Origin: Candidatus Nanopelagicales bacterium
GTDB taxonomy: Bacteria; Actinomycetota; Actinomycetes; S36-B12; UBA5976
Assembly (NCBI GenBank): GCA_044343935.1
Contig: JBIJDU010000006.1
Span: forward strand, 1,103-65,102
Length of the DNA stretch: 64,000 bases
Direction: 5' to 3'
In this document: in pieces, positions 1,761 through 50,919 of the stretch
Layout of the letters: every line of letters begins with the position of its first letter
Numbering within the stretch: position 1 is the first letter of the stretch
The notes under the pieces: model-generated
Told to the model about the DNA's origin: nothing
The model's input: only the letters and a program-made list of their open reading frames with translations
Databases searched by the model: none
Made by a program: the position numbers and the translations under genes

Positions 1761-3482
1761 GTGAACAGGTGTGTAATTCAGACAATTTGCCAGAGATCGA
1801 TTGCAGTTGTGGCTGCTAGGCAGATAGGGCGATACGCTCGCCAGGTGCGCCGAAGAGTAATAACTGCCCTGACCCTGCTGGTATTCACGTTTTCTGCCCT
1901 CCCCGCCACCGCTAATGCATTACATGGCACTTATCAAGTGGATTTTGTCCCCATTAGCTCACCAGCTGGCACGCCAGTATTAACTGAAGCTCAGGTGCGC
2001 AATTGGGTGAGCAAGATGAGCGCAATTTATGAGAGCGCAACTGGTGGCAAGATCAAATTAGAGTTTCGCACCTTATATCCAACTCAAACCACACAAGATC
2101 GCATCACTAGCCCAACTGGGTTAAAGGGTAAATTTCCTGCAGCTAATGTGCCAAAAGCAAATACGGCAGTTAAAGCCATTTTAGTTGGCGTGATTGCAAA
2201 AGATAGCAGTGTGGGATTTGCGGGAATAGCCACCTATAACGGCGATGAAATACTGCTTAACGGGTTAGCCAATGATGATCCAGTAAATATTTCCGTCTTA
2301 GTTCATGAGTTTGGTCATAACTTAGGGTTAGCACATGCTAACTCAGCTAAATGCACTAATCCAGCAGATCTAACTACCTGCACCTTAACTGAATATGGGG
2401 ATTACTCCGACATTATGGGTAAGTACTTTAAATCGTATGTCAGTTACGACGCTCGATTTAATGGTATTAGCTTAAACAAGTTAGGTGTATTAACTGAGAA
2501 TCAAGTCTTTTTAGCAAACACAACGGCAGAGTTAGAGTTAGTTCCACTATATGGCACGCAACCTGGTTTTAAAGTGATTTATCTGCCACTGTATAACCGA
2601 ATGGGTTATGCGGTGGAATATCGGCCAGCAACTGGCGTTGATTCTTCACTGAATCAAACTCAAATCTTTACCAGCAATAACTCCTATTACACCAACACTC
2701 CCTCTTATGGGCTACAAGTTAGATTCATCGGTGGGCAAGTAACCGCTACCGAAAAGTTTTTACCTGACACGGATAAAACCAGCAATACGATCTTCTTTAA
2801 TCGAAATCAAATCCGACAAGGAATGGATGCCGGCGATTCCATCACTTTACCCGATGGCTCAGTGGTGAGTTTTGTCTCTGGCAGCGGCGATAGCGCAGTT
2901 AAAGTGAAAATTGAACGAACAGCAGATACCACCGCACCAACAATTAACACTGCCGAATTTTCCTTGGTTGATGAGGGTAAACTGCCTAAATTCCAACTGG
3001 AATATGAATCCTTATCTGATGATCGCTATGTCACTAAATTAGAACTACTAATTAACTCAAATGTGGTAACCACAATTACAAATCCCGGAGTAAGTGGGGT
3101 AATTGAGCATCAGCTAACTAGCGCGAAGCCATTTAGTTATCAGCTAATTGCAACTGATGGGGCGGGCAACCAAAGTAAATCTGCCGTAACGCCAGCAGTG
3201 GTTGGTTGCAGTAATGAAAAGTGTTATGTCGGGGCAACCTGGGAAGTTGAAGCACCTAGTTGGAAACAGAAACTTGGCAATGCCCAACTGCAGGTGTTAG
3301 TAAATAAAGCTTGGAAGATAGTTACCAGTTCGGCGCCAGTAAGAAAAGATGGGCTTTGGACTTATGACCTGAAATACACCCCAACAAAAACTGGCAAATT
3401 CAAGTATCGAATCTATGTGCTACCAACCAAGAATTGGGCGGCTTATATTGATCGGCCATTTACCCAGCAGGTACCTGGCTAA
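1761..3482 (+). CDS. secreted zinc metalloprotease (metzincin, M11/gametolysin-like) with C-terminal Ig-like domains
   Basis: HEFGHNLGLAH = HExxHxxGxxH; EYGDYSDIMG Met-turn; signal-peptide-like ALPATANA; true start probably downstream of the GTG called. Confidence 0.8.
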   Translation: MNRCVIQTICQRSIAVVAARQIGRYARQVRRRVITALTLLVFTFSALPATANALHGTYQVDFVPISSPAGTPVLTEAQVRNWVSKMSAIYESATGGKIKLEFRTLYPTQTTQDRITSPTGLKGKFPAANVPKANTAVKAILVGVIAKDSSVGFAGIATYNGDEILLNGLANDDPVNISVLVHEFGHNLGLAHANSAKCTNPADLTTCTLTEYGDYSDIMGKYFKSYVSYDARFNGISLNKLGVLTENQVFLANTTAELELVPLYGTQPGFKVIYLPLYNRMGYAVEYRPATGVDSSLNQTQIFTSNNSYYTNTPSYGLQVRFIGGQVTATEKFLPDTDKTSNTIFFNRNQIRQGMDAGDSITLPDGSVVSFVSGSGDSAVKVKIERTADTTAPTINTAEFSLVDEGKLPKFQLEYESLSDDRYVTKLELLINSNVVTTITNPGVSGVIEHQLTSAKPFSYQLIATDGAGNQSKSAVTPAVVGCSNEKCYVGATWEVEAPSWKQKLGNAQLQVLVNKAWKIVTSSAPVRKDGLWTYDLKYTPTKTGKFKYRIYVLPTKNWAAYIDRPFTQQVPG

Positions 3483-3542: not shown

Positions 3543-4844
3543 ATGTCCTCCAGTAGTGAGCGGTTAGCAATCTCCCGGCTGAGCCATCGGTTTGGCTTTG
3601 GCCCAAAGCCCGGTGAATTTGCTCGGTTGATCAAAACTGGACAAAGCCAAGTTGCAACTCAATTACTTAACTCACCAGCGGTTGACATTTTCACGGCAAA
3701 TCAGATCCCGCCAAATGTTTATGATGCGGGTCGTCGACCCATGATGACGTCACCTGAATTAGGTAATTACTTAATTGATAAACGCACTCAATTTCAAAGT
3801 TTGCTGTTCTGGTGGCTAGACCGAATGGTGATTGCGGACCATGGCCTTATGGAGCGAATGACTTGGTTCTGGCATGGCCACTGGGCAACTTCCTACACCA
3901 AAGTAGATGATGCGCTGCCGATGTATCTGCAGAATCAAACCTTACGTCGACATGCGCTGGGAAATTTTGCGGCGATGTCAAAAGCGATGGTTAACGATGG
4001 CGCGCTGATTTTTTGGCTGGATGGACAACTCAATACCGCAAAAGCGCCCAATGAGAACCTTTCTCGCGAATTAATGGAGTTGTTTATTTTAGGCGTTAAT
4101 CGCTATTCGGAATCGGACGTTCGAGAAACCGCAAAGGCGTTAACTGGCTATAAGGTGGTTAAAAATACTGGGGTAGTGTTGTTTAACCCAAGACAGCACC
4201 ACAATGGGCCCATTAGTTTTCTGGGAACAACTGGAAATTACAACGCTGATTCGTTAAGTGATTATTTAGTAAGTCGAGCTGATTGTGCGAAATTTATTGC
4301 CGAGCGAATCTGGTATCGCTTCATTTCAAGTGACCATGAGCTAACGGGGATCAATTATCAACAAGCGTTTCAAGCAAGAGAAATCGCACCGCTAGTGCAA
4401 GCAATTGGTAACAGCGCTGCTATTGCTGATCCCCGCTACAGCATGGTGAAAAGTCCAGTTGATTGGTTAGTTTCAGTTTGTCGTGCCTTCAAAATTCTGC
4501 CAAGTCAGGTAAGAAATCCAACTCAGATCCGCATTGGCTTAACTACGTTAGGTCAACTGCCGCTCCAGCCGCCAAACGTTGGGGGTTGGCCAGCAGATCA
4601 AGCCTGGCTGTCCGCGGCATCAGCCCAGACCCGAATCTCGTTTGCTTCGATGCTTGCCGGTGAAGCAGATTTGTCTCCAATTGCTGATCTCAAAGCCACA
4701 GATCGAGTTGCTGCGATCGCTGATTGGCTTGGCGTATATCAATTTAGCGAGCGCACGTTAACTGCGTTTGAGTCAGCTCGAAAAGATCCAACCAGATTAG
4801 CAGTTCTGGCAATTTGTTCACCGGAATATCTGGTTGGGGCCTAA
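3543..4844 (+). CDS. DUF1800 family protein
   Basis: RLSHRFGFG, ERMTWFWHGHWATS, NENLSRELMELF.LG, PPNVGGW motifs; adjacent DUF1501 partner. Confidence 0.88.
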   Translation: MSSSSERLAISRLSHRFGFGPKPGEFARLIKTGQSQVATQLLNSPAVDIFTANQIPPNVYDAGRRPMMTSPELGNYLIDKRTQFQSLLFWWLDRMVIADHGLMERMTWFWHGHWATSYTKVDDALPMYLQNQTLRRHALGNFAAMSKAMVNDGALIFWLDGQLNTAKAPNENLSRELMELFILGVNRYSESDVRETAKALTGYKVVKNTGVVLFNPRQHHNGPISFLGTTGNYNADSLSDYLVSRADCAKFIAERIWYRFISSDHELTGINYQQAFQAREIAPLVQAIGNSAAIADPRYSMVKSPVDWLVSVCRAFKILPSQVRNPTQIRIGLTTLGQLPLQPPNVGGWPADQAWLSAASAQTRISFASMLAGEADLSPIADLKATDRVAAIADWLGVYQFSERTLTAFESARKDPTRLAVLAICSPEYLVGA

Positions 4845-4852
4845 GGAGAAAA

Positions 4853-6082
4853 ATGGATACCATCACGCGCCGAAAGTTTCTCCAAGTCTTTGGTGCTAGC
4901 GCGGCTGGCGCGGTTGCTACCACGCTGTCATACGACCAAATTGCACAAGCGGCAATTGATCGACCATTGCCCCTTGGCACCCCAATTTTGGTAGTGGTAA
5001 CCCTTTACGGTGGCAATGATGGCTTAAACACCGTTGTTCCAGTAACGGATCCGATCTATCAATCAATGCGCCCTGGCATTGCTTACACGCCAGATCAAGT
5101 GCTGCCACTTGCCGATAATCTCTACTTAAACGGTTCGATGGATGGCTTGCATTATTTGTGGCAACAAAACAAAGTTGCCATTGTGAGAGGAGTTGGTTAT
5201 CCAAATCCTGATCGATCCCATTTTGCTTCGATGGCCATTTGGCAATCGGCAAATTTAACTGCAGTTAAGTCTGGTTGGTTAGGCCGATGGGTAGAGACGC
5301 AGCCGAGAGATCCGCTGCTGGCAATTTCGTTAGGTTCCGTGCTGCCGCCACTGTTAGCTGGTTCTAAGCGTCCTGGTTCAGTATTGCCCTTAGGTGGTTT
5401 GAAAGTTCCAACCGGCCCATTAGGTGCTGAATGCCGCCGACTTTCCGCACCAAGTAAAAGTGATAACGAACTGCAAGCATTAGCAGCACAATCAATGCGA
5501 GATTTATTCACCGTTTCAGCTGATGTCACGCCAATTCTGAAAGGTCCGGCGCCAGCAGCGCCAGATCTACCAACTGCAATTGGTAGCAATGCTGGCGGTG
5601 ATACGAATTTGTCCCAACAACTAGATGTGGTAGCGAAGTTGATTGCTGCTGGTGCACCAACTCGAGTCTGGGTAACTTCGCTGGGTGGTTTTGACACTCA
5701 TGCTGATGGCAAGGATTCGCAATCTATTTTGTTGGATGTGGTTTCTGATGGAATTACTAGATTCATGTCACAGTTGAAATCAACTGAGCGAAGTAAAGAT
5801 GTGGTGGTGCTGGTTTACAGTGAGTTTGGCCGAAGGGTTAGAGCTAATGCTTCCGAAGGAACTGACCATGGCACCTCAGGCCCGGTATTTGTAATTGGTG
5901 ATCGGGTTAAAGGTGGTTTTTATGGCGATCAACCTTCATTGGCTAATCTCAAAAATGACGATCTGGCAGTTACGACAGATTTTAGAGACATTTATGCCAG
6001 CGTGTTAGAGCAGGTATTACAAACGCCAGCGGAGCGAATCCTAGGGAACTGGCGCAGTCGTATTCCGCTGTTTACTGCTTAG
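4853..6082 (+). CDS. DUF1501 family protein, Tat-exported
   Basis: start moved to ATG after AAGGAG; TRRKFL twin-arginine signal; LYGGNDGLNTVVP, GFDTH, SEFGRR, GTDHG motifs. Confidence 0.88.
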   Translation: MDTITRRKFLQVFGASAAGAVATTLSYDQIAQAAIDRPLPLGTPILVVVTLYGGNDGLNTVVPVTDPIYQSMRPGIAYTPDQVLPLADNLYLNGSMDGLHYLWQQNKVAIVRGVGYPNPDRSHFASMAIWQSANLTAVKSGWLGRWVETQPRDPLLAISLGSVLPPLLAGSKRPGSVLPLGGLKVPTGPLGAECRRLSAPSKSDNELQALAAQSMRDLFTVSADVTPILKGPAPAAPDLPTAIGSNAGGDTNLSQQLDVVAKLIAAGAPTRVWVTSLGGFDTHADGKDSQSILLDVVSDGITRFMSQLKSTERSKDVVVLVYSEFGRRVRANASEGTDHGTSGPVFVIGDRVKGGFYGDQPSLANLKNDDLAVTTDFRDIYASVLEQVLQTPAERILGNWRSRIPLFTA

Positions 6083-6084
6083 CG

Positions 6085-7839
6085 CTAGCGCCTCTTGTAA
6101 CCAGCAGGGCATTTTGGTTTTACCGCTTTCACCTTTTTAGTTTTTACCCCGTTAGTGCAGGTAATTGTTTTCGTTACTGGTGTCGGCACTACTACTGGTT
6201 TATTTCGCTCGGCTTCAAGGAGTCTAAATTCAGCTTCAGTCATTACCGAAAATGTGGCAGTATCGCCAATCACGCTGTGAGCAAAAACCACTAAGCCATC
6301 GGTCTTGGCATGTTGATTTGTTGACAGTGGCGCGGTGGCATATCGCTCCAGGTCGGTATTAAAGGAAACTGGCTTATCTTGCTCGGAGGCAATAATCTGA
6401 ACTGGCCCCTTAATTGATGCAATCGTAAAGTCAATCACGTATGCCAGCAGACCAGTGTTTGCACCTAAGGTATCAAAATTAGTATTAGTCCGATATTCAA
6501 TCATTAGCGCTTTGCTGCCACTAATGGGATGAATATAAAGCCGTTTACCACTCCCGGAGTTAATTGGGGCTAGGGTAATTTTTTCACTACTAATTGCAGT
6601 GAGCTGACAAACCACATCGGTATCAGGAAGCCAGCCTTGCACAAATCGATGAAAGCCCAGAAAAGTATTCGCGCTGCCAGAAGTGTTTCCCATTAAGTCA
6701 AAGGGCCCAGGAGATTTACCAGTATTTGGTCCAGATTGCAGATATAAGTCATACATCCCCAATAAGTGACCATACTCATGGGCGAATACCTTCCAACTTG
6801 GCACGCCAGGGGTATTGATGGTGCCAATTACGCCATTTACTAATTGGGAATTAACAATGGTGTCTTTGCCAGCAGTTAATTTGTGGCCAGGAAATGCGGA
6901 ACCATAATATCGCATGGAATCTGCAGTTGGGGCAAAAAAGTTAAGGCTGGCATAGCCTGATAGATCAGCTTGGGTGTTTGCAATTCGTAGTGCTTCATTA
7001 ATCAGGTTCAGATCTTTTCTGCCACCCTGAACATCAAATTTACCTTCACTATTAGGTGCAAAGCTCTTCTCGCTGCTATTTACTCTTACTACCTTTGGGT
7101 GAACATCAAATAAGACATTTAATTTATTGTAAGAATTAAACAAAAAGAACTCATTAGTTATCTTTGGCGATAACACATTGTTAACGCTTGTCATTAAATC
7201 GCCAGTAAACGGCGCATCGGGAAAATCCAGCACGATAATTAAGTTTTTAGTAGTGCCAGTAGCTGGCACTCGGTCGTTATTGCGCGGAAACCCTAATCGC
7301 AGCTCGCCTAATCGATAATCATCCATTTTGCAATCGGCCGGCAATCTGGCTGGAGTGTCAATCTTGAAGCCGAGACCGCCACCCTTGTAGTAACTAGATC
7401 CTGGTTGAATCTCAAACACTTTTTCATCAGTAGATAACTTAAGTCGCCAGGTAACGCCAGCTGCATTTCTAAAGTAATACCCAGCAGCATCTCGATTCAG
7501 ACTGCCAATCTGCCACGGCGGGGCTTGATCAGAGCTGCTTATTGAATCCAGTGCCACATAACAGCCGATTACCGAAATTGGCTCAGTTGCATAATCTGTG
7601 CTGTTTGGCTTGAGTAACGTAAATTCTTGACCAGTGTTTTGAAAAACTAATTTAGTGGTCTTTGGTGTTGGAAGAGTTGGTGAGACATCAACAATATTGG
7701 GGCAGGCGGCTAACCATTCTGGTCGCTTCAACCCATTGGCTTGTGCTGTTACTACCTGAAATAAGCTAAGTAACAGAAATGAAATTGAGAATAATGAAAT
7801 AAATCTGTTGCTGAATCTGACGGTATTGGCTCCGAGCAC
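6085..7839 (-). CDS. secreted M6-like (immune inhibitor A type) metalloprotease with basic Cx15C C-terminal tag
   Basis: signal peptide; HEYGHLLGMYDLY (HExxHxxGxxD); FDLMG Met-turn; tail TKTITCTNGVKTKKVKAVKPKCPAGYKRR. Confidence 0.82.
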   Translation of the reverse strand: MLGANTVRFSNRFISLFSISFLLLSLFQVVTAQANGLKRPEWLAACPNIVDVSPTLPTPKTTKLVFQNTGQEFTLLKPNSTDYATEPISVIGCYVALDSISSSDQAPPWQIGSLNRDAAGYYFRNAAGVTWRLKLSTDEKVFEIQPGSSYYKGGGLGFKIDTPARLPADCKMDDYRLGELRLGFPRNNDRVPATGTTKNLIIVLDFPDAPFTGDLMTSVNNVLSPKITNEFFLFNSYNKLNVLFDVHPKVVRVNSSEKSFAPNSEGKFDVQGGRKDLNLINEALRIANTQADLSGYASLNFFAPTADSMRYYGSAFPGHKLTAGKDTIVNSQLVNGVIGTINTPGVPSWKVFAHEYGHLLGMYDLYLQSGPNTGKSPGPFDLMGNTSGSANTFLGFHRFVQGWLPDTDVVCQLTAISSEKITLAPINSGSGKRLYIHPISGSKALMIEYRTNTNFDTLGANTGLLAYVIDFTIASIKGPVQIIASEQDKPVSFNTDLERYATAPLSTNQHAKTDGLVVFAHSVIGDTATFSVMTEAEFRLLEAERNKPVVVPTPVTKTITCTNGVKTKKVKAVKPKCPAGYKRR

Positions 7840-7898: not shown

Positions 7899-10800
7899 CT
7901 ATCGCCTAACTACCACCACAACACAGCGATTCTTGAACTCTGCGCAGAGCGGGCTGACTTTGCCACCCTTGTTCTTCACCTTGATTGGAATGCTCTTGTC
8001 AATGGTTCGTATCGCTTCAGTTGCGGCAACTGCCCTTCGAGCCGCAAACTTACGATCTGATTTGGGCTCAGTTGGCTTGGCATAAGCTTCCAGCACAATC
8101 TTCTTTACTGGCTTATCAAAGATTGAAGTTAGTGGGATGGTGTAGCTGTCGGCAACAGTGCGCTGCAATCGATTAAACCCAATTGTCACCTGATCTGGCG
8201 CATCAATAACTAAGATCTTAAGTGAAGTAGATCGCAAAGTGTTTTGCGGCGATACCCCAACCACCTGCAGCGTATGTTCGCCAAGCTCAATACCTTCAGG
8301 TAGATCATTTAACGTCTCAAACGTGCCGTCTTCTTTAACCTCTACTTCACCCACAAATGTTGGCTCGGAGAAGATAAAGATCTTGGCTAAGGAGAACGGC
8401 ATAAAGCCAGTGCCAGCAGACTTAATCTGTAGTTCCCGCGGCAATGTAAACAAGTTGTTTCTTACTACCGGTGGATTTAGTTGGCTTTGGGATTGCGCGG
8501 ATAAGTCCAACTCCCAAAGATCTGATTTAACATTTATGCCAGCATTATTGGTTTTGGTGGTGGTTACCACATTTACTTCTTTATTGCCCTCTAGTACTAC
8601 TGGGGTAAGGGATGGCTGAGGTGGCGTTGGCAAAATAACCGGCACAACTTGTGTTGGTTGCGGCTTCTCAAACGTGTAAGTAAGTGGCGTTGCAGCACCG
8701 TTATTTATCACTACTTCATATCTGCCTGGTCGCAGTGACCTAGTTTCTAACTCAAATTGAGTAGGTGACTGCCGCCAGTTAGTTGGATCAATAGATAGTC
8801 CATTTAAGGTGACATTAGTAATTGGCCGAGTGAAATTACCTTCAACTCTATTTGTTGGGGCAAATGGATTAGCTGGAATTGAAGGTGGCCGGACTACATC
8901 AGTTTGAGCTGGACGAGGCGGTATTGGTGCCCTTGGTATCACTTCATTACTAGCAATTGAAACAGCGGAGTTAACTCCGCTATAGATTGCAATTGAGGTA
9001 AAGGTGTAGCTGACCCCATTGCTTAAGCCAGTAACCGTGCAAGAGCCTTCGGCTCCATTCACTGTACAGGTAAATCCACCTGGACTCGAGGTCACTAAAT
9101 ATGAAGTTGGTGTTTCAGATGCTGGCGGTGTGACGGTAACTGTTGCTCTGCCATTACCAGGTGTGGCAACTGGTGCTCCCGGAACTTCCGGTGCGCCCGT
9201 GGTAAAGCTTCTAACAGTTCCATAAATCGGACCGCCGATTGTATTTGTGGAATAAGACTGGAAGTAGTACGTGGTATTGAAATTCAGCGACGAGACGTTA
9301 GCTGATACTGAAGTTGCGGCATAGCCTGAAGTGGTGGCGTTTGTACTTGGTGTAATGATGCTAACCGCTGCGTTATCAGAAGTTGCGCAATTGCTTAAAG
9401 TGCTGGAGACACTGATACAGAATCGGTTGGTGGTATTTATTCCATTAGCTACGACCGAAGAATTGAGCACGGCCGTTGAGCCAGATATGGAGCTTGCAGC
9501 AGCACTGGTATTTGTTGGTGCCCCTGAAACATTGATCGTAATTGCTTTGATATCTGATCGAGCAACGGCAACGCCTGCGGAACCCGTTCCATACTCAATA
9601 ATATAACCATTTACGCTTGAAGTATTAGTACCGCTTAGATCATTCCAACAAGAGCTAGTTGCATTCTGGACCAAGTTCCAATTCGTTACAGCGTAATCTT
9701 CATCACTTGCGTTATTTGGTTCTCCGCTGCACCAGTTTGCATAATTCAAGCCTTCGCTAGTTACGACCGAACCATTAGCAACACCTTGCCAGAATTGTTT
9801 GCCTGCTTCAGGTGATCCACCCGTTGGATCCCATTCCCATCGACCTTCAGTTGCAGCATCTGAGGCACCAATCCATACGTTTGCCGCATTTGCAATGTTC
9901 TTAAAAACGAAATCTTGCTCTGCAGCCGAAGTTATCGTTACTAGGTAGCCTGACAGTCCCAAATATGTGCTGGCTTTTGCGGCGGCATTGGCATCTGCCC
10001 AGGAAATCCGAGCATGGGCGCCGCCAGTGCGAGCAACATAGTAATTACCTCTAAATGAAGCAAAGCCAGATATAAATTTAGTTGCGGATACTCGTAATTC
10101 CAGTGCACCGACCGTTGCACCAGTAGTGATCTTTAGGGTAGCTAAGGCAGCATTTATTTCTGTTGCGGTGCCAATAATTGTCAAGTTTGTGAAGCTTGAT
10201 TCTGAGCCGGCCGCAAAGCCAAATGCTCGCTCAGCTGTACCTAAATTAGCTATTTTTGCCGTGGTTCCAGCCCCAGCATTGATCAAGGATAGGGTAACTG
10301 AATAGTCAACGTTCGGCTGTAAGCCAGATACCGAAATTCCACTGGCATTAAAGTCAGTTACATTTGCATTAATACTAAACGATGGTGGAGCAGTAACTAA
10401 TGCTGCTTCATACAGAATGTTTACTGTGAAAGTATTAGTGCTCGATAGCGCACCTGCATCAGTTGCTGTAATTGTGAAGACGTCCGTAACGGATTGGGTA
10501 ATCGCATTAATGGCTGTATCGTTTGGATCATAAACATAGGCGCCAGTTGTCTCATTAATACTAAAGGTGCCATAAATTCCTGCCTTTGAAACAGAACCAC
10601 CAGCTGAAACACCGTCTGTTAAAGCAAATGTGAATGAATTGTTGTCTGGGTCAGTCGGGGTGATGTTTCCAGTTTGATTGGTATAGGTATCCGCATCGGC
10701 AGTGTCATAAAGGGTGATACTGCTGGCAGCTAGGACTGGCGCATCATTGACCGTAGTAATGTTGATGTTAAACGTAGTTGAAGCACTGTTTCCAGTAGCA

Positions 10801-11978
10801 GGAACTGCAGTAAAAGTTACTGTTCTAGTTGCTGCTGGATTATCAGATGTTGATGCATAAGTTAATAGTCGAGCTACCTTCTGAACATTTGCTGCTGTTG
10901 CAAGAGTTCCAACTACGCGAATATTATCAATATAGAGTGAACCGCCAGCAACTTTACCACAAGTTCGATCATGGGTACCATTGACGAAAACAAATCGGTA
11001 ATTTCCAGTAACCGGAATGTTGGCACTAGTGGTAGTCCATGGCTGACTAATTCCATTAGAGTCAATAACTTCAGTTTGTGCACCGGTGGTTGTGTTTACG
11101 ATATAACCGTATGCGTCATAATCGTCACCACCATCTGCAGCAGACCAATCAAAAGAAATCACATCTCCTTGAGCTGCTGCAAATGGTTCACTAACAGCTG
11201 CTGGACCATGAACAACATCGCAGCCGACCTTAGTGCCCATTGTGCTAAATAGTCTTAACGACTTTTCCCCTTCGTTCTTAACCGAAGTCGTGATTTCGGC
11301 CGAAAAAGTTGCAGAATCAGGAATGTTGTTATCCCGGTTTGTGGTATTAGCTGGATATGTGTTGTTTGAGTCATCTGAAACAAATCCACCTAAACTAGTG
11401 ACACCTAAGTTAATAAAGTGATTCTGATTCCCCAAGCCCACAATTGTCCAACCAGCTAGTCTAGTCGAAATACTTGGAGGGCTGGTGTTTCCGTCATCAA
11501 CTGTTATTGCACCGACGGTTGCATTTTCAAAACCTGAGTTTCCAAATGCACTTGTGAAGTTGATCCGAAGTGGCTGTCCATTTGTACCATTCTTGGTTTC
11601 ATCAATAGAGGCAAATGGTTTGGCGGTTGTGTTGTCACCTACATAAATCTGATTACCAACAACTGAAACTACACCATCATCAATAACTGGAGTTTGAACT
11701 TTCTGCAGACTCAATACGTCAGATGCAGCTTGTGAGCCAATTGCAAACTCAATGTATTTTCCATCAAAGGGACCACCAGTTACGGTAAGCCCAGCACCAG
11801 CAAGCACTGCCGCAGCATTTTCAGTGTAGGAAACTGTTGCCCCATCACCAACACCGGCATTTGCAGCTGAAGCACTTAGTGATGGGAGAAATACCTGAAG
11901 CAGCACAAGAGCTGAGAAGATTGCGAAAAGCCGTTGGGTGAAACCAAACCTTTCATCAGTATGCCTCACCAGCAACAT
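7899..11978 (-). CDS. large secreted adhesin (1359 aa): cadherin/VCBS-like repeat, C-type lectin, FnIII, degenerate OmpA-like C-terminus
   Basis: YLVTITSAAEQDFV..WIGASD..EGRWEW..YANWCSGEPNN..WNDL is a C-type lectin signature; PGAPVATPGNGRATVT..YLVTSSPGG is FnIII-like; NDAPV..DPD cadherin-like. Confidence 0.8.
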   Translation of the reverse strand: MLLVRHTDERFGFTQRLFAIFSALVLLQVFLPSLSASAANAGVGDGATVSYTENAAAVLAGAGLTVTGGPFDGKYIEFAIGSQAASDVLSLQKVQTPVIDDGVVSVVGNQIYVGDNTTAKPFASIDETKNGTNGQPLRINFTSAFGNSGFENATVGAITVDDGNTSPPSISTRLAGWTIVGLGNQNHFINLGVTSLGGFVSDDSNNTYPANTTNRDNNIPDSATFSAEITTSVKNEGEKSLRLFSTMGTKVGCDVVHGPAAVSEPFAAAQGDVISFDWSAADGGDDYDAYGYIVNTTTGAQTEVIDSNGISQPWTTTSANIPVTGNYRFVFVNGTHDRTCGKVAGGSLYIDNIRVVGTLATAANVQKVARLLTYASTSDNPAATRTVTFTAVPATGNSASTTFNINITTVNDAPVLAASSITLYDTADADTYTNQTGNITPTDPDNNSFTFALTDGVSAGGSVSKAGIYGTFSINETTGAYVYDPNDTAINAITQSVTDVFTITATDAGALSSTNTFTVNILYEAALVTAPPSFSINANVTDFNASGISVSGLQPNVDYSVTLSLINAGAGTTAKIANLGTAERAFGFAAGSESSFTNLTIIGTATEINAALATLKITTGATVGALELRVSATKFISGFASFRGNYYVARTGGAHARISWADANAAAKASTYLGLSGYLVTITSAAEQDFVFKNIANAANVWIGASDAATEGRWEWDPTGGSPEAGKQFWQGVANGSVVTSEGLNYANWCSGEPNNASDEDYAVTNWNLVQNATSSCWNDLSGTNTSSVNGYIIEYGTGSAGVAVARSDIKAITINVSGAPTNTSAAASSISGSTAVLNSSVVANGINTTNRFCISVSSTLSNCATSDNAAVSIITPSTNATTSGYAATSVSANVSSLNFNTTYYFQSYSTNTIGGPIYGTVRSFTTGAPEVPGAPVATPGNGRATVTVTPPASETPTSYLVTSSPGGFTCTVNGAEGSCTVTGLSNGVSYTFTSIAIYSGVNSAVSIASNEVIPRAPIPPRPAQTDVVRPPSIPANPFAPTNRVEGNFTRPITNVTLNGLSIDPTNWRQSPTQFELETRSLRPGRYEVVINNGAATPLTYTFEKPQPTQVVPVILPTPPQPSLTPVVLEGNKEVNVVTTTKTNNAGINVKSDLWELDLSAQSQSQLNPPVVRNNLFTLPRELQIKSAGTGFMPFSLAKIFIFSEPTFVGEVEVKEDGTFETLNDLPEGIELGEHTLQVVGVSPQNTLRSTSLKILVIDAPDQVTIGFNRLQRTVADSYTIPLTSIFDKPVKKIVLEAYAKPTEPKSDRKFAARRAVAATEAIRTIDKSIPIKVKNKGGKVSPLCAEFKNRCVVVVVRR

Positions 11979-19885: not shown

Positions 19886-22453
19886 TTAGTTGTTACCGGT
19901 GACGATAACCTGATTTGAGAACAAACCAGTTCCTTCTTGCTTCACACGGATAACCTTGTCCTTCTTGAATCCACGGATGGATCCGTTGAAGTCACCAGGG
20001 GCTGCAACTTCTAGAGTCTTAGCCTTTTCTACCCATGTGGTTGCACCAACAGACTTAACGTAGATGATGATGTCACCTTCGTTATTAACTGCGGTACCAG
20101 AAAGAATCACACGGCCATTGCGCTTCTTGATTTCAAGAGTTGGCGCATCAAATGGTGCGACGTATGCAGAACCAGTTACAGATCCGGTTGGATCAGCAAC
20201 TGAACCGCTACCTGCTGCGAAACGTTTTACGGTTGAACCGGCAGCGTCGTTGTATTCAGCGTAGTTAGCAACATTGAGCGAGACGTTTGCTAGGAAGTTA
20301 CCGTCTTCACCCTGAGTTCCAACAACATCCACGAAGCAAGTTCCATTTGAGCTGGTTACGCAAGTGGTTGTTGAGCCACCGAATGCGAATCGACCAGCAG
20401 CAGATGTTGCTGCACGTGAGAAGTCAACTGTTACGCCAGTTAGAGCATTGCCCCAACCATCTTTAACAGTTGCGGTGATCTTGCCAGGAACCTGATCAGA
20501 TCCCCAGGTAGCAGATCCACCGGTGATAACTAGTGAGCGTGCATTTGCTGCAGTTGCAGTTACAGTGAATGTCTTAGCCACAGAGTGACCTAGTTCAGTT
20601 GTAACAGTTACTGTTGCAGTTCCAGCTGTGGTGCCATAGGCATATACAGCTGTGTTGCTTGCAGCGGTCAAAGTAGTTGTAGCAAGGGTGTCAGTTGAGT
20701 TTGCAGCAACTAGCTTTGCTCCACCAGTTGCGGTGTAAGTCAACAAAACACCGGTCTTAGCAGCAAGACCAACTGCAGTTGAAGCCAATGCTGGAGTTAC
20801 TGAAACGTGGTTAGCCACAGTTACAGTCTCGGTGTATAGCGCTTCATCAGTTGTTGCACCAAGAGTTACATCTAGTGAGTATGCAGCCTGAGTGGTGTAT
20901 TCCACAGTCAATGAAGCATTCTCTAGGTCAGTAGCTAGGTCACCTGGAGCGAAAACGTTCCAGTTCAAGGTGTCATTAGCTGCACCAGCCTTAGCATCTA
21001 CGTGAGTAACGGTTGCATTACCGTTTGCATCAGTGATTGCCTGAGTAGTTGCAGCGTTGCTACCAGTTGAAACTGCTTGAACAACGTAGTTGCTGTACTT
21101 GGTTCCGAATTCGTCAGCCACAGTAACTGTGTATGAACGAGTTGAACCAGCTAGAGCTAGAACTGTGGTCAAGTTTGTTGCTTCAACGTTTGGTGACCAA
21201 GTGACAGTTGCATCCTGAACTGAAGCTGCGTTGTAAGTAACAGTGTGGCTAACACCATCATTTGCATCCTGATAAACGGTTACAACATAACCCTGACCAG
21301 CAGTTGCTGCGGTTGCGGTTACTGTGACCGTTGCTGTTCCAGCAGATCCAATGACTGCGTGATAAGTACCGGCTGTTACTCCAGTTGGAGCGCCACCGCC
21401 ACCAGCAGCAATTACAACTCTAACTGCAGTTCCAGCAGTACCGGAAATGGTGAATGGAATTGATAGGTTTGTTAGTGAAGAGACAACTGGTGCATCTTGA
21501 ATGTCACCATCATCAACAGCATCACTTACTGGAGCAGCTGGGAATGCGTATGCAGCATCTGCAGTTGTTGTAACTCCTGTTTCGCCAGCTTGAACTGCAA
21601 TACCAGTTGTGTAACCCTCAGTAACTGAGGTGTAGGTAGCGGTTGCAGCTGTTGCAAGTGGATTCAGTGATCCACCGAAGTTTGCACTAATTGTTGAAGT
21701 GCTAACTGCAGCAGCCTGAACAGCGAAGTCATACTTATTTGAAGTTAGTGCACTTGCAGCAGTAAGTGTGCTAGAGCGAGGTGAAGCACCTGCTGAGCCG
21801 TCCAAAGTGATGTTGCCAGATCCTGCTGTTTGGGTCATTCCCAAGATAACAGTTTCAGCGCCAGTCAACTTAGTTACTCGGCCACCAGCATCTGTCAAAG
21901 CAACTGAGTAAGTTGCATTCACAGCCACTAGTGAAGCACCCGAATTACCAAGTGCATCTGCTTTAGCGGTTACGGTTAGAGCGGTTGGTGCACCACCAAC
22001 AGTGATCGAACCAGTTGTTGTGGTTTCGCCAGCGTCAATTACGCCGTTGCCATTTGGATCCCAATAGGCCAAATAGCCATAGTCTCCAGCGACATTGAAG
22101 TAATCACCAGCAGCACCAACGGTTACGTTTGTTGAGGCAGCAGCAGCAAGACCACCTGCACCAGCAGCTGGGTTAGCTGCAGTGAACTGATCGCCAACCT
22201 CAAATGTGGTGGCATCGGCTGTTGCTGGAACTGATGTAATACGAATGACCATGTCGCCATCTGCGTCCTGGGCAATCGCTGCAGTGTTCTTGACTGCAAT
22301 TACAGCATCAGTTGTAGCAGTTGCACGAACCACATCTGTTGGGTTTGTGACTGTTACAGCTGAAGCGCTTGCTGGTGCAATCACAGCAAATGGTGCAATG
22401 ACCAATGATGCAATAACGCCAAGCGACAAGCGCTTAGTTGTCTTATTAGACAT
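19886..22453 (-). CDS. Ala/Thr/Val-rich secreted surface protein, S-layer candidate (855 aa)
   Basis: signal peptide ending APASA; beta-rich Ig-like segments; short basic C-terminal domain; AAAGGA RBS; monocistronic with strong terminator. Confidence 0.7.
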   Translation of the reverse strand: MSNKTTKRLSLGVIASLVIAPFAVIAPASASAVTVTNPTDVVRATATTDAVIAVKNTAAIAQDADGDMVIRITSVPATADATTFEVGDQFTAANPAAGAGGLAAAASTNVTVGAAGDYFNVAGDYGYLAYWDPNGNGVIDAGETTTTGSITVGGAPTALTVTAKADALGNSGASLVAVNATYSVALTDAGGRVTKLTGAETVILGMTQTAGSGNITLDGSAGASPRSSTLTAASALTSNKYDFAVQAAAVSTSTISANFGGSLNPLATAATATYTSVTEGYTTGIAVQAGETGVTTTADAAYAFPAAPVSDAVDDGDIQDAPVVSSLTNLSIPFTISGTAGTAVRVVIAAGGGGAPTGVTAGTYHAVIGSAGTATVTVTATAATAGQGYVVTVYQDANDGVSHTVTYNAASVQDATVTWSPNVEATNLTTVLALAGSTRSYTVTVADEFGTKYSNYVVQAVSTGSNAATTQAITDANGNATVTHVDAKAGAANDTLNWNVFAPGDLATDLENASLTVEYTTQAAYSLDVTLGATTDEALYTETVTVANHVSVTPALASTAVGLAAKTGVLLTYTATGGAKLVAANSTDTLATTTLTAASNTAVYAYGTTAGTATVTVTTELGHSVAKTFTVTATAANARSLVITGGSATWGSDQVPGKITATVKDGWGNALTGVTVDFSRAATSAAGRFAFGGSTTTCVTSSNGTCFVDVVGTQGEDGNFLANVSLNVANYAEYNDAAGSTVKRFAAGSGSVADPTGSVTGSAYVAPFDAPTLEIKKRNGRVILSGTAVNNEGDIIIYVKSVGATTWVEKAKTLEVAAPGDFNGSIRGFKKDKVIRVKQEGTGLFSNQVIVTGNN

Positions 22454-28793: not shown

Positions 28794-29645
28794 ATGAATT
28801 GGGAGCTACCTGCTGGTTATCAGCATATTCATTCGGGCAAAGTGAGAGATATTTATTTAACGCCGAATCACACCTTGTTATTAGTGGCATCAGATCGAAT
28901 CAGTGCCTTTGATCATGTGCTGGCAAACACCGTGCCTAATAAAGGCAAAATATTAACTGCCATCTCATTGTTCTGGTTTAAAAATTTAAATGTGCCCAAT
29001 CATCTTATCTCAACTGATGTGCCAGCTGGCGTTACTGGCCGAGCGATTGAAGTTAAGAACTTAACCATGATTCCAATTGAATGTGTAGTGCGCAAATATT
29101 TAACTGGTTCAGCTTGGTTGGAATATCAAGCAACTGGCAGTGTTTGCGGAATTGCGTTGCCCGCAGGATTAGTTAATGGGGCGCAGTTGGCCGAGCCAAT
29201 TTTCACCCCCGCCACAAAGGCAGCAGTTGGTGAGCATGATGAAAATATTAGTTATGAAAAAGTAATTGAGATTGTTGGAAATAAATTAGCTCAGCAGTTA
29301 AGAGATACGTCAATTGAGATCTTTAACCAAGCAATAGAAATATTAAAACCAGCAGGCTTTACGCTCATTGATACCAAGTTTGAGTTTGGTGTTGATGCTG
29401 ATGGGGTTTTAATGCTGGCTGATGAAGCACTCACGCCAGATTCCAGCCGATATTGCAATACCGATGAGATGCAACCAAATAAACTAGCACCATCTTTTGA
29501 TAAGCAGTTAGTGCGCGATTGGTTGCTAGCTAATTGGGATAAAGATAGTGGCATTGCACCACCTAAAATTCCGAAAGAAGTTATTGAGTTAACTGCTGCA
29601 CGTTATCAAGAAGTGCTAGATCGGTTAACTGCTATCTCTTCTTAA
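28794..29645 (+). CDS. purC: SAICAR synthase
   Basis: HSGKVRDIY, SDRISAFD, IECVVR, DTKFEFG, LTPDSSR, DKQLVRDWL. Confidence 0.97.
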   Translation: MNWELPAGYQHIHSGKVRDIYLTPNHTLLLVASDRISAFDHVLANTVPNKGKILTAISLFWFKNLNVPNHLISTDVPAGVTGRAIEVKNLTMIPIECVVRKYLTGSAWLEYQATGSVCGIALPAGLVNGAQLAEPIFTPATKAAVGEHDENISYEKVIEIVGNKLAQQLRDTSIEIFNQAIEILKPAGFTLIDTKFEFGVDADGVLMLADEALTPDSSRYCNTDEMQPNKLAPSFDKQLVRDWLLANWDKDSGIAPPKIPKEVIELTAARYQEVLDRLTAISS

Positions 29646-30666
29646 ACCCAGCGGGACATTTAGGTTTTATTGCTGTTATTTTTCTAACTGTCTTCTTCTT
29701 AATGCAGGTAATTGTCTTTTTAACAGGCTCTATTTTTATCGGTTCAGTTTTAACTGGCTCAGGTTCAACCGTTGGTAGAGTGGCTAAATAATCCAGCGCA
29801 GTTTTAATTACGCCTTCAAAGTGCGCGGCTGCGTAATACTCGCCATGAGAGTTAGTTGACCAAAATGGATCTTGAAATAATCGATCACCATCTGGTGTGC
29901 TGGCATTAATCCCATTTGAGCAGCACATCGCACCTAAATAAACCCATTCATTGCCGCGCTGATACCAAAGCGGACTGCCCGAATCGCCACCGCCCATGTA
30001 GACATTCCTTGGCAGCACGGTTTGCAGCACCATGTTCGGATTTAATCGTTGCACTTCTGCTGAGGCGGCACCTTGAATCGCATTTTTTGTTCGCAGCGTG
30101 GCATTTGTCTTTGTTGGTTTTGGATCTGCTGGATTCCTATCAGTTGGACTCTTAGTGCCATAACCAATTGCCAACACTGGCGAGGCTGCCGTAATAAGTG
30201 AAGCCAGCTCGGGCAGTTTTACATAATCAAATGTTTTAGTCCCAATTGGGGTTTCCAGTATTAATACAGCAAAGTCATATAACGGACCATGACCATTATT
30301 TGGCTCGTAAGATGAATCCTTATATCGCTCATCTCGGAATTGGGCAATTACTCGCACTAACCTTTTATTTCCAACTGGAATTAACGCACCTGGTTCACTC
30401 ACCCAAATGGGTGCATTAGCCAGCGGACCGGAAACTGGTGCAGCACTACCAGTAGCTCGATACAAGCAATGTGCTGCAGTGAATACCACTCGAGGTGCAA
30501 TCAACGCGCCAGAACAACCACGTTGATAGGAGCGATCTTGAGCGATGATGCCAACAACTAATTCGCTACCAGTTGCATCTATCCCATTTCGCATAGCAGT
30601 TGCAGGCGAAAGAGAAGTAAATCCAAACAATATTGCAACTAAAATTGTTAGCAGTTTTGATTTCAT
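29632..30666 (-). CDS. secreted trypsin-like (S1) serine protease with basic Cx15C C-terminal tag
   Basis: triad motifs FTAAHC / YDFAVL / GGDSGSPL; signal peptide; tail KKTITCIKKKTVRKITAIKPKCPAGFKKR. Confidence 0.88.
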   Translation of the reverse strand: MKSKLLTILVAILFGFTSLSPATAMRNGIDATGSELVVGIIAQDRSYQRGCSGALIAPRVVFTAAHCLYRATGSAAPVSGPLANAPIWVSEPGALIPVGNKRLVRVIAQFRDERYKDSSYEPNNGHGPLYDFAVLILETPIGTKTFDYVKLPELASLITAASPVLAIGYGTKSPTDRNPADPKPTKTNATLRTKNAIQGAASAEVQRLNPNMVLQTVLPRNVYMGGGDSGSPLWYQRGNEWVYLGAMCCSNGINASTPDGDRLFQDPFWSTNSHGEYYAAAHFEGVIKTALDYLATLPTVEPEPVKTEPIKIEPVKKTITCIKKKTVRKITAIKPKCPAGFKKR

Positions 30667-49581: not shown

Positions 49582-50919
49582 GTGCGCCTGCGATTAGTTA
49601 GTCTCTTGACTGCGTTAACGCTGCTCAGCACTCATGTGGTTGTGGTCTCCTCAGTTGCGGCACCAGTATCTGACTGTCGCATTAGCGTTTCACCAAATCA
49701 AACAGTTTCGCTTGGTTTCCCGATAGCACCAGAGCGAATAAATACCAAGGCAAAACCAAAAATTATGGTGCTGCCATTTCGGTTAAGTGACCGACCGACT
49801 TTTTCATTTAGCGAAAACGTGAAATCAGACTACGAAGCAGCAGCAGTATTCATTGAGCGCTATTCACGTGGCTTGAGTAAACCAGAATTTGTATATGCTC
49901 CCGTGGTTGATATTACCGAAACGGTAGCCGACATGGTCATTCTTCGCCAAAATCAACAACAGCAATGGCAGCGAGACGAGGCTAAATCAACTTGGGGATT
50001 CATAAGAAAACTAATCGCAAACAGTGATGACAAAATTGACTTTACTGGCATTGATGGCGTAATTATGCATGGTTCCTCAACTAGTAGTGATTCATGGATT
50101 GCTGAAGCAATGATGTTCAGTAAAAATCCGCGAGATCCTTGGTTCCGAACTATTAAAACTGCAGAAGGAGAAATCTTGAATGCAGTATTGTTAGATAAAC
50201 ACAACTCAATTTCAACAATTGCGCATGAAATTTTGCACCTTTATGGACTGACAGACTTATATGGAACACCAACTGGTCCTGGAAATCTATCCCTTATGGC
50301 GTCAAATGCAGATGCATTACTTAGTTATGAAAAGTGGGTGCTTGGCTGGTTTCCAGAAAATCAAGTTCAATGTATTGTAGAAGCAACGGAGATCAAATCG
50401 ACACAAGTGAGTACTCGGATCAAAATTCCTAATTCAAATACAGATCAAATCGTAGTGATTAATTCTGATGTTTCTGGTCAGGCCATGATTATTGAAACTT
50501 ACCCAAGCGGCACAAGCACTTATCTGGCTTTCTATTCGCTGAATAATGAAGCTAGACCGCCAATAACTATGCATACACCTCAGCTTGGCTTGCCAGGTTC
50601 TGGATTGATAATCTCAAATACTTCTGGTGTTGGTGCGCAATTACTTTCCCCAAAATACCACTTATTAGTTTCAGATAAAACTACTAGTGAGATTACCTTA
50701 GATTTGATACCCAAGGGACAGCTTTCAAGCGCATCAGCTCTCATTGCAGCAGCAGAAGCAAATCGAATTCGAATTCAACAGGAAACGGCAAGTCAAGTTG
50801 AATCAGTGGGAACTAAACCAAAATCCAACAAAAAGTCTATCGTTTGTGTTAAAGGTAAAACTGTTCGCAAAATAAATGCCGTAAACCCAAAGTGCCCATC
50901 TGGATTTAACAGAAAGTAA
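49582..50919 (+). CDS. secreted M6-like metalloprotease with basic Cx15C C-terminal tag
   Basis: signal peptide; HEILHLYGLTDLY; LSLMA Met-turn-like; tail KKSIVCVKGKTVRKINAVNPKCPSGFNRK. Confidence 0.78.
   Translation: MRLRLVSLLTALTLLSTHVVVVSSVAAPVSDCRISVSPNQTVSLGFPIAPERINTKAKPKIMVLPFRLSDRPTFSFSENVKSDYEAAAVFIERYSRGLSKPEFVYAPVVDITETVADMVILRQNQQQQWQRDEAKSTWGFIRKLIANSDDKIDFTGIDGVIMHGSSTSSDSWIAEAMMFSKNPRDPWFRTIKTAEGEILNAVLLDKHNSISTIAHEILHLYGLTDLYGTPTGPGNLSLMASNADALLSYEKWVLGWFPENQVQCIVEATEIKSTQVSTRIKIPNSNTDQIVVINSDVSGQAMIIETYPSGTSTYLAFYSLNNEARPPITMHTPQLGLPGSGLIISNTSGVGAQLLSPKYHLLVSDKTTSEITLDLIPKGQLSSASALIAAAEANRIRIQQETASQVESVGTKPKSNKKSIVCVKGKTVRKINAVNPKCPSGFNRK

Follow-up and report, generated by a model that had tools for sequence, protein, structure and literature searches.

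Surface proteins that are anchored in Gram-positive bacteria have a characteristic architecture in which Pro-rich or helical stalks span the wall, and both GW modules and basic surface-layer (S-layer) anchoring domains bind anionic polymers of the teichoic type. We examined a 64,000-nucleotide stretch of DNA (the window; positions 1,103 to 65,102 of contig JBIJDU010000006.1, assembly GCA_044343935.1) from a Candidatus Nanopelagicales bacterium, in which three exported proteases end in the same short and strongly basic unit carrying two Cys residues separated by 15 residues (the Cx15C module). Comparison of this unit across genomes and protein databases identified it as an autonomous extracytoplasmic mini-domain of approximately 28 residues, which is neither a tag of proteases nor a C-terminal sorting signal. 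In concept the module belongs among the non-covalent wall-binding modules of monoderm bacteria, and its size, fold and single-disulfide design are new.

The closest counterparts are the LysM, GW, CW_binding_1/2, SLH, SH3b and PG_binding_1 modules, with which it shares a terminal position on unrelated exported enzymes, the presence of spacers, the capacity for tandem repetition and the lack of a membrane helix. It differs from them in length (approximately 28 as opposed to 40-80 residues), in its single Cys pair and in the three-stranded mini-sheet predicted for it, and Pfam scans of the module proteins, tails and arrays returned no match to LysM, SH3b, GW, CW_binding_1/2, SLH, PG_binding_1 or WxL. 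Proteins anchored by the LPXTG/sortase system have a similar order of parts, with a signal peptide, a functional domain, a Pro/Thr-rich or helical spacer and a C-terminal element. The module, however, lacks an LPXTG motif and a hydrophobic segment, also occurs in N-terminal and tandem copies, and would be attached non-covalently; a genome-wide regular-expression search for LPXTG-type tails gave only 3 spurious matches. The signals of exosortase, archaeosortase, rhombosortase and myxosortase systems (PEP-, GlyGly-, MYXO- and PGF-CTERM) were rejected as relatives on account of the absence of a transmembrane helix and the existence of N-terminal, internal and tandem copies, and the sole CTERM-type NCBIfam match (SVAGG, E 0.04) lies in the body of one protein and is meaningless. 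A zinc ribbon or zinc knuckle was also rejected, as only two Cys and no His are conserved and the hosts are extracytoplasmic. A physical analogy for binding is provided by thanatin, tachyplesin and protegrin, which are cationic, disulfide-stapled beta-hairpin peptides with affinity for anionic lipids and polymers of the envelope. The module resembles these peptides in size, strong positive charge and hairpin, but has no homology to them and is a domain of large exported proteins, with one probable disulfide enclosing a 15-residue loop and with a third strand.

An earlier note on this DNA, made from the sequence alone, left it undecided whether such a family was already described, and our searches found no model or paper describing it. 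No model of Pfam-A (2025 copy) or NCBIfam (release 20) covers the module, whether whole proteins, tails alone or tandem arrays were scanned; a sequence search of the PDB and a Foldseek comparison of the module model with the PDB gave nothing significant; and a literature search that included motif strings and DUF7871 found no relevant paper in the library searched. DUF7871 (PF25277) is the sole library model to touch the module, and positions 2-52 of its profile weakly match two tandem copies, with a best score of 20.8 bits (E 4e-4) for an isolated two-copy array and 15.7 bits for the full protein, compared with a gathering score of 29.5. The second half of this 105-position model is never matched, single copies never match, and the model hits 1 of 36 multi-copy proteins; it was rejected as the family of the module.

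Three protease tails and the module they define

The focal gene of the window (6085-7839, reverse strand) encodes an exported M6-like zinc metalloprotease of 584 residues, which in Pfam and NCBIfam scans matches the TIGR03296 M6 domain at E 1.4e-16, below the curated cutoff, and Peptidase_M6 and Reprolysin weakly. Inspection of its translation by eye places a signal peptide at residues 1-34 (MLGANTVRFSNRFISLFSISFLLLSLFQVVTAQA; 7738-7839, reverse strand), and a short Pro-rich linker (EAERNKPVVVPTPV; 6175-6216, reverse strand) joins the protease body to the first copy of the module (TKTITCTNGVKTKKVKAVKPKCPAGYKRR; 6088-6174, reverse strand; isoelectric point (pI) 10.5, net charge +10), with the stop codon at 6085-6087. 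The second gene (29632-30666, reverse strand) encodes an exported trypsin-like (S1) serine protease of 344 residues (PF00089 Trypsin, E 2.5e-13), in which a Pro/Glu-rich linker precedes module copy 2 (KKTITCIKKKTVRKITAIKPKCPAGFKKR; 29635-29721, reverse strand; pI 10.9, net charge +12). The third (49582-50919, forward strand) encodes an exported M6-like metalloprotease of 445 residues with an HEILH motif (TIGR03296, E 1.2e-10, again under the cutoff) and ends in module copy 3 (KKSIVCVKGKTVRKINAVNPKCPSGFNRK; 50830-50916, forward strand; pI 10.7, net charge +9); orthologues of this protease in all genomes of the genus retain the module. The common 29-residue tail, the signal peptides, the linkers ahead of the tails (Pro-rich in two of the three) and the absence of a hydrophobic helix such as those of LPXTG or PEP-CTERM signals had been described in the earlier note, and all were found here, with the open reading frames (ORFs) and tails at the positions above and recognizable n-, h- and c-regions at the N-terminus of each protease on inspection. 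The charge of the tails sets them apart from the proteins that carry them, with pI values of 10.5-10.9 and net charges of +9 to +12 for the modules as compared with pI 5.6-6.4 for the bodies.

A hidden Markov model (HMM) built from the three tails was searched against all six-frame ORFs (22,277) of the genome (1.38 Mb; 46% guanine plus cytosine, GC). It recovered the tails themselves (E 6e-17 to 5e-15) and, at E 7.7e-8, a fourth copy independent of them; the next match had an E-value of 0.32. The fourth copy (C31:5860-5955) lies directly after the twin-arginine translocation (Tat)-type signal peptide MKRREALTVLAGSVVALLPISTANA of a Rieske protein. In pairwise comparison of the window tails, the codons differ at 8 of 16, 10 of 13 and 12 of 18 identical residues; the tails are thus alike as protein and not as DNA, which argues against a recent duplication. 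Their similarity reflects old divergence under purifying selection. At the trypsin-like gene, the last module codons and the stop overlap the 3' end of a convergent ORF by 14 base pairs (29632-29645); this 283-residue ORF (28794-29645) resembles SAICAR synthase (purC) by eye.

Across the family the module has the consensus K-T-T-I-T-C-[VI]-K-G-K-x-x-K-K-V-T-A-[VI]-[KN]-P-K-C-P-x-G-[YF]-K-K-K. In 220 copies the Cys, the Gly at +3, the Pro at +14, the Cys at +16, the Pro at +17 and the Gly at +19 are 97-100% conserved, the spacing between the Cys residues is 15 in all copies except one (219/220), and the mean net charge of the module copies is +7.5. The three window tails and the C31 copy all fit the family pattern [TK]-I-x-C-x-K-G-x3-[KR]-x-V-x-[AG]-x-x-P-x-C-P-x-G-[YFW], with its Cys spacing of 15. 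An AlphaFold2 prediction from a 46-sequence module alignment headed by copy 2 has a mean predicted local distance difference test (pLDDT) score of 89.7 and consists of a beta-hairpin (KTITCIK / TVRKITA), a loop (IKPKCPAG) and a short third strand. An independent prediction for the whole Rieske protein contains the same three elements at pLDDT of approximately 90, together with a helix and a disordered linker between the module and the Rieske domain.

From the strand register of the model, the second Cys should return beside the first, and a disulfide between the two most likely staples the module. Such a disulfide is plausible because the genome encodes a DsbA-like protein and a VKOR homologue and because the Cys counts of host bodies are mostly even (even in 80 bodies and odd in 18). 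The DsbA-like protein is membrane-anchored and has an FQCPAC motif (C13:1295-2080, reverse strand; PF13462, 1.4e-20), the VKOR homologue has a CPWC motif (C14:18246-18821, forward strand; PF07884, 1.1e-33), and their genes lie on separate contigs; the two make up the actinobacterial oxidative-folding pair, a sign that this streamlined genome provides for the oxidative folding of its exported proteins. Of the cationic, disulfide-closed beta-hairpin that the earlier note had proposed, the charge (pI 10.5-10.9), the hairpin-based fold and a Cys placement able to close it are borne out by calculation and prediction, and the bond itself is inferred.

Host proteins, placement and distribution

A profile of the module was searched exhaustively against 1.84 billion representative proteins and gave 2,780 protein clusters at E<=1e-3, of which 174 reached E<=1e-10; placement and copy number were then counted in the best 163 representatives. 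The last copy lies no more than 6 residues from the C-terminus in 160 of these 163, and 36 of them carry 2-5 tandem copies. In two representatives, P0014 and P0016, copies occur only away from the C-terminus, and in P0016 a CAP-like domain comes after the two internal copies. P0051 carries a copy at its end and a further one flanked by two NHL-type propellers. At 79 loci in named genomes, 126 of 127 last copies are C-terminal, ending within 6 residues of the stop. The Rieske protein encoded on C31 has the opposite arrangement, in which the signal peptide is followed by the module, a helix, a linker rich in Ser, Gly and Pro and the Rieske [2Fe-2S] domain, and this N-terminal placement is kept in all Rieske orthologues found. 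A search among Rieske homologues for a lipobox or transmembrane anchor in place of the module recovered only close orthologues that bear the module. The strict C-terminal position supposed in the earlier note therefore does not hold, given the N-terminal copies of the Rieske family, the internal copies of P0016 and P0051 and the tandem arrays of two to five, and such N-terminal, internal and tandem copies are those of a domain or repeat and not of a sorting signal.

Two types of spacer join the module to the body, being either stretches rich in Pro, Thr and Ser or long repeats of the AAELKAKQEAEAK type, which judging by their composition probably form extended helices. Spacer length is free to vary among orthologues and the module remains constant, an arrangement like that of the stalks that span the wall in anchored Gram-positive surface proteins. 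Among 120 homologues of the focal protease, 111 have the module at the end, and the linker site is occupied by spacers that vary, being either Pro/Thr-rich or long and of the AAELKAKQEAEAK type. Eight of the 120 (P0173, P0182, P0246, P0263, P0266, P0267, P0272 and P0275) have no Cx15C module and end, after a long coiled-coil-like region, in a shorter basic tail with two Cys, KK[IV]C[SA][AV]KPKPKGC followed by the stop (KKVCSAKPKPKGC); this tail may be an alternative ending that is interchangeable with the module.

Once the module is trimmed away, the hosts group into 20 clusters of unrelated bodies, and the earlier description of a tag for proteases has to be abandoned in favor of a module found on at least 20 unrelated bodies. 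These include trypsin, M6-like, GH43-like, BNR, PD40 propeller, BspA-type leucine-rich repeat (LRR_5), Laminin_G_3, Ig-like, Rieske, DUF1501 and phytase-like proteins, and Matrixin, fn3 and Flg_new bodies are also among the hosts. Export is their common property: by heuristic criteria, approximately 92 of 98 complete host ORFs have an N-terminus resembling a signal peptide, a co-occurrence that had been suggested at the outset, the Rieske and DUF1501 hosts have Tat motifs, and no convincing cytoplasmic host was found among the module-bearing proteins examined. Database entries for members that have a name read 'hypothetical protein' or take the name of the body.

The commonest host is an exported family of approximately 550-650 residues without a Pfam match (L056:1153-3087 and 73 related ORFs, L019-L097). 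Its genes often occur as two or three tandem paralogues, and some loci adjoin genes for an ECF sigma factor, an anti-sigma-like protein and a membrane protein. Across the 79 loci, these are the only recurrent neighbors (a membrane protein and the ECF sigma/anti-sigma pair), and they are tied to this one host family; no partner of sortase, CPBP, Lgt, oxidoreductase or protease type recurs beside the module genes.

With a narrow four-sequence profile, all 8 genomes of the genus of the window carry 2-4 copies, and matches were obtained in 1 of 17 genomes drawn from the other genera of the family and in 0 of 16 from other families of the order. In named species-representative genomes, nearly all of the 173 confirmed matches are from Candidatus Planktophila, Nanopelagicaceae and freshwater actinobacterial metagenome-assembled genomes, in agreement with the statement in the earlier note that freshwater actinobacterial proteins have tails of this kind. 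Complete isolate genomes with the module include IMCC26103 (CP015604.1) and several OZ2541xx chromosomes. A few odd taxon labels belong to contigs of very small length and resemble errors of binning or labeling, and divergent or multi-copy members occur on other backgrounds, for example P0051 on a contig of 64.6% GC with a DUF2516 neighbor of actinobacterial type. The family reaches beyond the acI lineage but is expanded in it. Module identity is 0.79 within and 0.69 between host families, a difference reached in 0 of 500 permutations, and this higher similarity within families indicates that the attachments are mostly old and vertically inherited. Module identity of approximately 70% across unrelated bodies is what one common ligand would be expected to produce, and suggests such a ligand.

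The module is also encoded on 31 IMG/VR contigs (L099-L129), some of them 55-80 kb in length and all of 28-39% GC except L129 (44%). Here the copies are mostly on trypsin-like proteins with signal peptides (e.g. L118:3104-4096 and L108:3095-4090), and the neighboring genes encode 2OG-Fe(II) oxygenases, a JmjC protein and methyltransferases, resembling auxiliary-gene regions of phages on contigs that are only putatively viral. In the Gly/Ala-rich protein of 528 residues encoded at L129:2555-4138, the copy (TTITCYNQITGESVPVTGVNPSCPAGF) is divergent and not basic, and it lies close to the C-terminus without reaching it. No GenBank phage was matched when the module was searched by tblastn, and a PHROGs scan of the proteins of the putatively viral contigs gave no informative matches.

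Several exported proteins surround the focal gene in the window. A DUF1800/DUF1501 pair with a Tat signal (3543-6082) adjoins the gene and converges on it; this DUF1501 protein has no module, and the DUF1501 proteins of two related genomes (L007 and L015) carry a C-terminal copy behind a Pro/Ser-rich linker. Immediately upstream of the focal protease gene (7899-11978, reverse strand), an exported protein of 1,359 residues has cadherin-like, C-type-lectin-like and fn3-like regions and ends in SPLCAEFKNRCVVVVVRR, a C-x6-C element followed by five Val and two Arg that differs from the Cx15C module and may be another anchoring element. An exported-looking, zinc-metalloprotease-like ORF of 573 residues with weak Reprolysin and M10 matches (1761-3482, forward strand) lies nearby and has no module. 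The tail of a candidate S-layer protein at 19886-20248 was also read as a possible copy and is not the Cx15C module.

Proposed envelope retention and its alternatives

We propose, with a probability of roughly 0.55, that the Cx15C module is a non-covalent, electrostatic module that retains exported proteins on the cell envelope. The proposal draws on the terminal position of the module after a spacer, its occurrence on any kind of exported host including Tat-dependent redox proteins, its tandem arrays, its extreme charge and the lack of a hydrophobic helix, and on the absence of a processing gene nearby and of LPXTG substrates or a sortase signature. The module, with a net charge of approximately +7 to +12, is attached at one end of proteins that take the Sec or Tat route, with a flexible Pro/Thr-rich spacer or an extended helical spacer of Ala, Glu and Lys in between, and after export it would be oxidized by the DsbA-like/VKOR system. 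The oxidized, cationic module would then bind an anionic component of the envelope, such as a wall glycopolymer, a lipoglycan or a membrane phospholipid, with the spacer projecting the enzyme outward from the cell and tandem arrays adding avidity. Exoenzymes and redox proteins could in this manner stay on a tiny planktonic monoderm cell that has no LPXTG substrates or sortase signature.

Several observations weigh against this proposal. Function is deduced from architecture and charge, and these data do not distinguish wall polymer, membrane and S-layer ligands. Some divergent copies are far less basic than the average, with a minimum net charge of -5 (e.g. P0014 and P0018), and charge alone may not be the conserved property. 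Among the 84 representatives of at least 200 residues, 19 have no obvious signal peptide, most of which look like truncated gene calls. The absence of the sortase TLxTC signature from the six-frame ORFs of this 94% complete genome is based on a regular expression only. Finally, hosts rich in hydrolase, lectin-like and LRR domains also fit the binding of a substrate or target.

This last point leads to the main alternative, which we regard as unlikely, though far from negligible. Here the module would guide hydrolases and adhesin-like proteins, once secreted, not to the cell's own envelope but to substrates of polyanionic nature or to foreign surfaces, such as algal or bacterial cell walls, acidic polysaccharides, extracellular DNA and particles. 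Many hosts are indeed hydrolases or binding proteins (proteases, GH43-like, BNR, LRR_5, Laminin_G_3 and Ig-like), C-terminal tandem arrays are compatible with such binding, and host-wall binding would make sense for the trypsin-like proteins with signal peptides on the IMG/VR contigs. Those contigs are, however, only putatively viral, a strictly terminal placement behind a long spacer is what anchors typically show, and the Tat-exported Rieske [2Fe-2S] and DUF1501 hosts have no polymeric substrate and need to stay near the membrane. It is improbable that the module serves some purpose other than localization, as a handle for oligomerization or for intermolecular disulfides, as a regulator acting on the enzyme within the same molecule, or as a cationic antimicrobial hairpin that can be released. 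Tandem arrays could cross-link and the physical resemblance to cationic, disulfide-stapled hairpin peptides is evident, yet the occurrence on at least 20 unrelated bodies argues against regulation of a particular enzyme, the exact Cys spacing within the module and the even Cys counts favor an internal disulfide, and freely varying linkers with no conserved processing site precede the module.

A C-terminal sorting signal that a dedicated enzyme processes for covalent attachment or lipidation through Cys, in the manner of LPXTG/sortase or MYXO-CTERM systems, is less probable still. The module is mostly found at the extreme C-terminus, where other monoderms have their sorting signals, and has two invariant Cys, and the different two-Cys basic end (KKVCSAKPKPKGC) of eight focal-protease homologues hints at interchangeable signals. 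Against this, the module has no hydrophobic helix, remains at the N-terminus of mature Rieske proteins, occurs internally and in tandem, is confidently predicted as a folded domain, and has no sortase-, CPBP- or Lgt-like recurrent neighbor at the 79 loci. That a sequence so short and rich in Lys reflects chance similarity or a functionless low-complexity tail has a practically negligible probability and is refuted by the genome E-values of 1e-15 to 1e-17, the fixed spacing and invariant non-Lys positions (I, C, G, P, C, P, G and an aromatic residue), the thousands of members, the conservation in spite of synonymous divergence and the confident fold prediction.

Beyond retention on the envelope, we tentatively consider a broader and rather doubtful possibility, in which the module would be a general, sortase-independent surface-display system of acI (Nanopelagicaceae) and a new fold class of cell-wall-binding domain recognizing a lineage-specific anionic wall glycopolymer. 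If this is true, the whole set of exoenzymes and extracytoplasmic redox proteins would be held on the acI cell surface through the module, and phages of freshwater bacteria may have borrowed it. A 28-residue, autonomous, cationic domain with a single disulfide would also be among the smallest protein-targeting modules known, with possible use as a display tag.

The acI bacteria (Nanopelagicaceae), whose genomes are streamlined and which are difficult to grow in culture, are among the most abundant bacteria of lakes, and the question addressed by these results is how such cells retain exoenzymes in dilute water. With a curated Pfam or NCBIfam profile of the module, several thousand proteins now listed as 'hypothetical' would be better annotated. 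As an easily recognizable new domain, the module marks a surface-exposed proteome that includes proteases, glycosidase-like and binding proteins, the Rieske protein and the large family of approximately 600-residue proteins, and from it follows a concrete hypothesis for anchoring that is open to testing.

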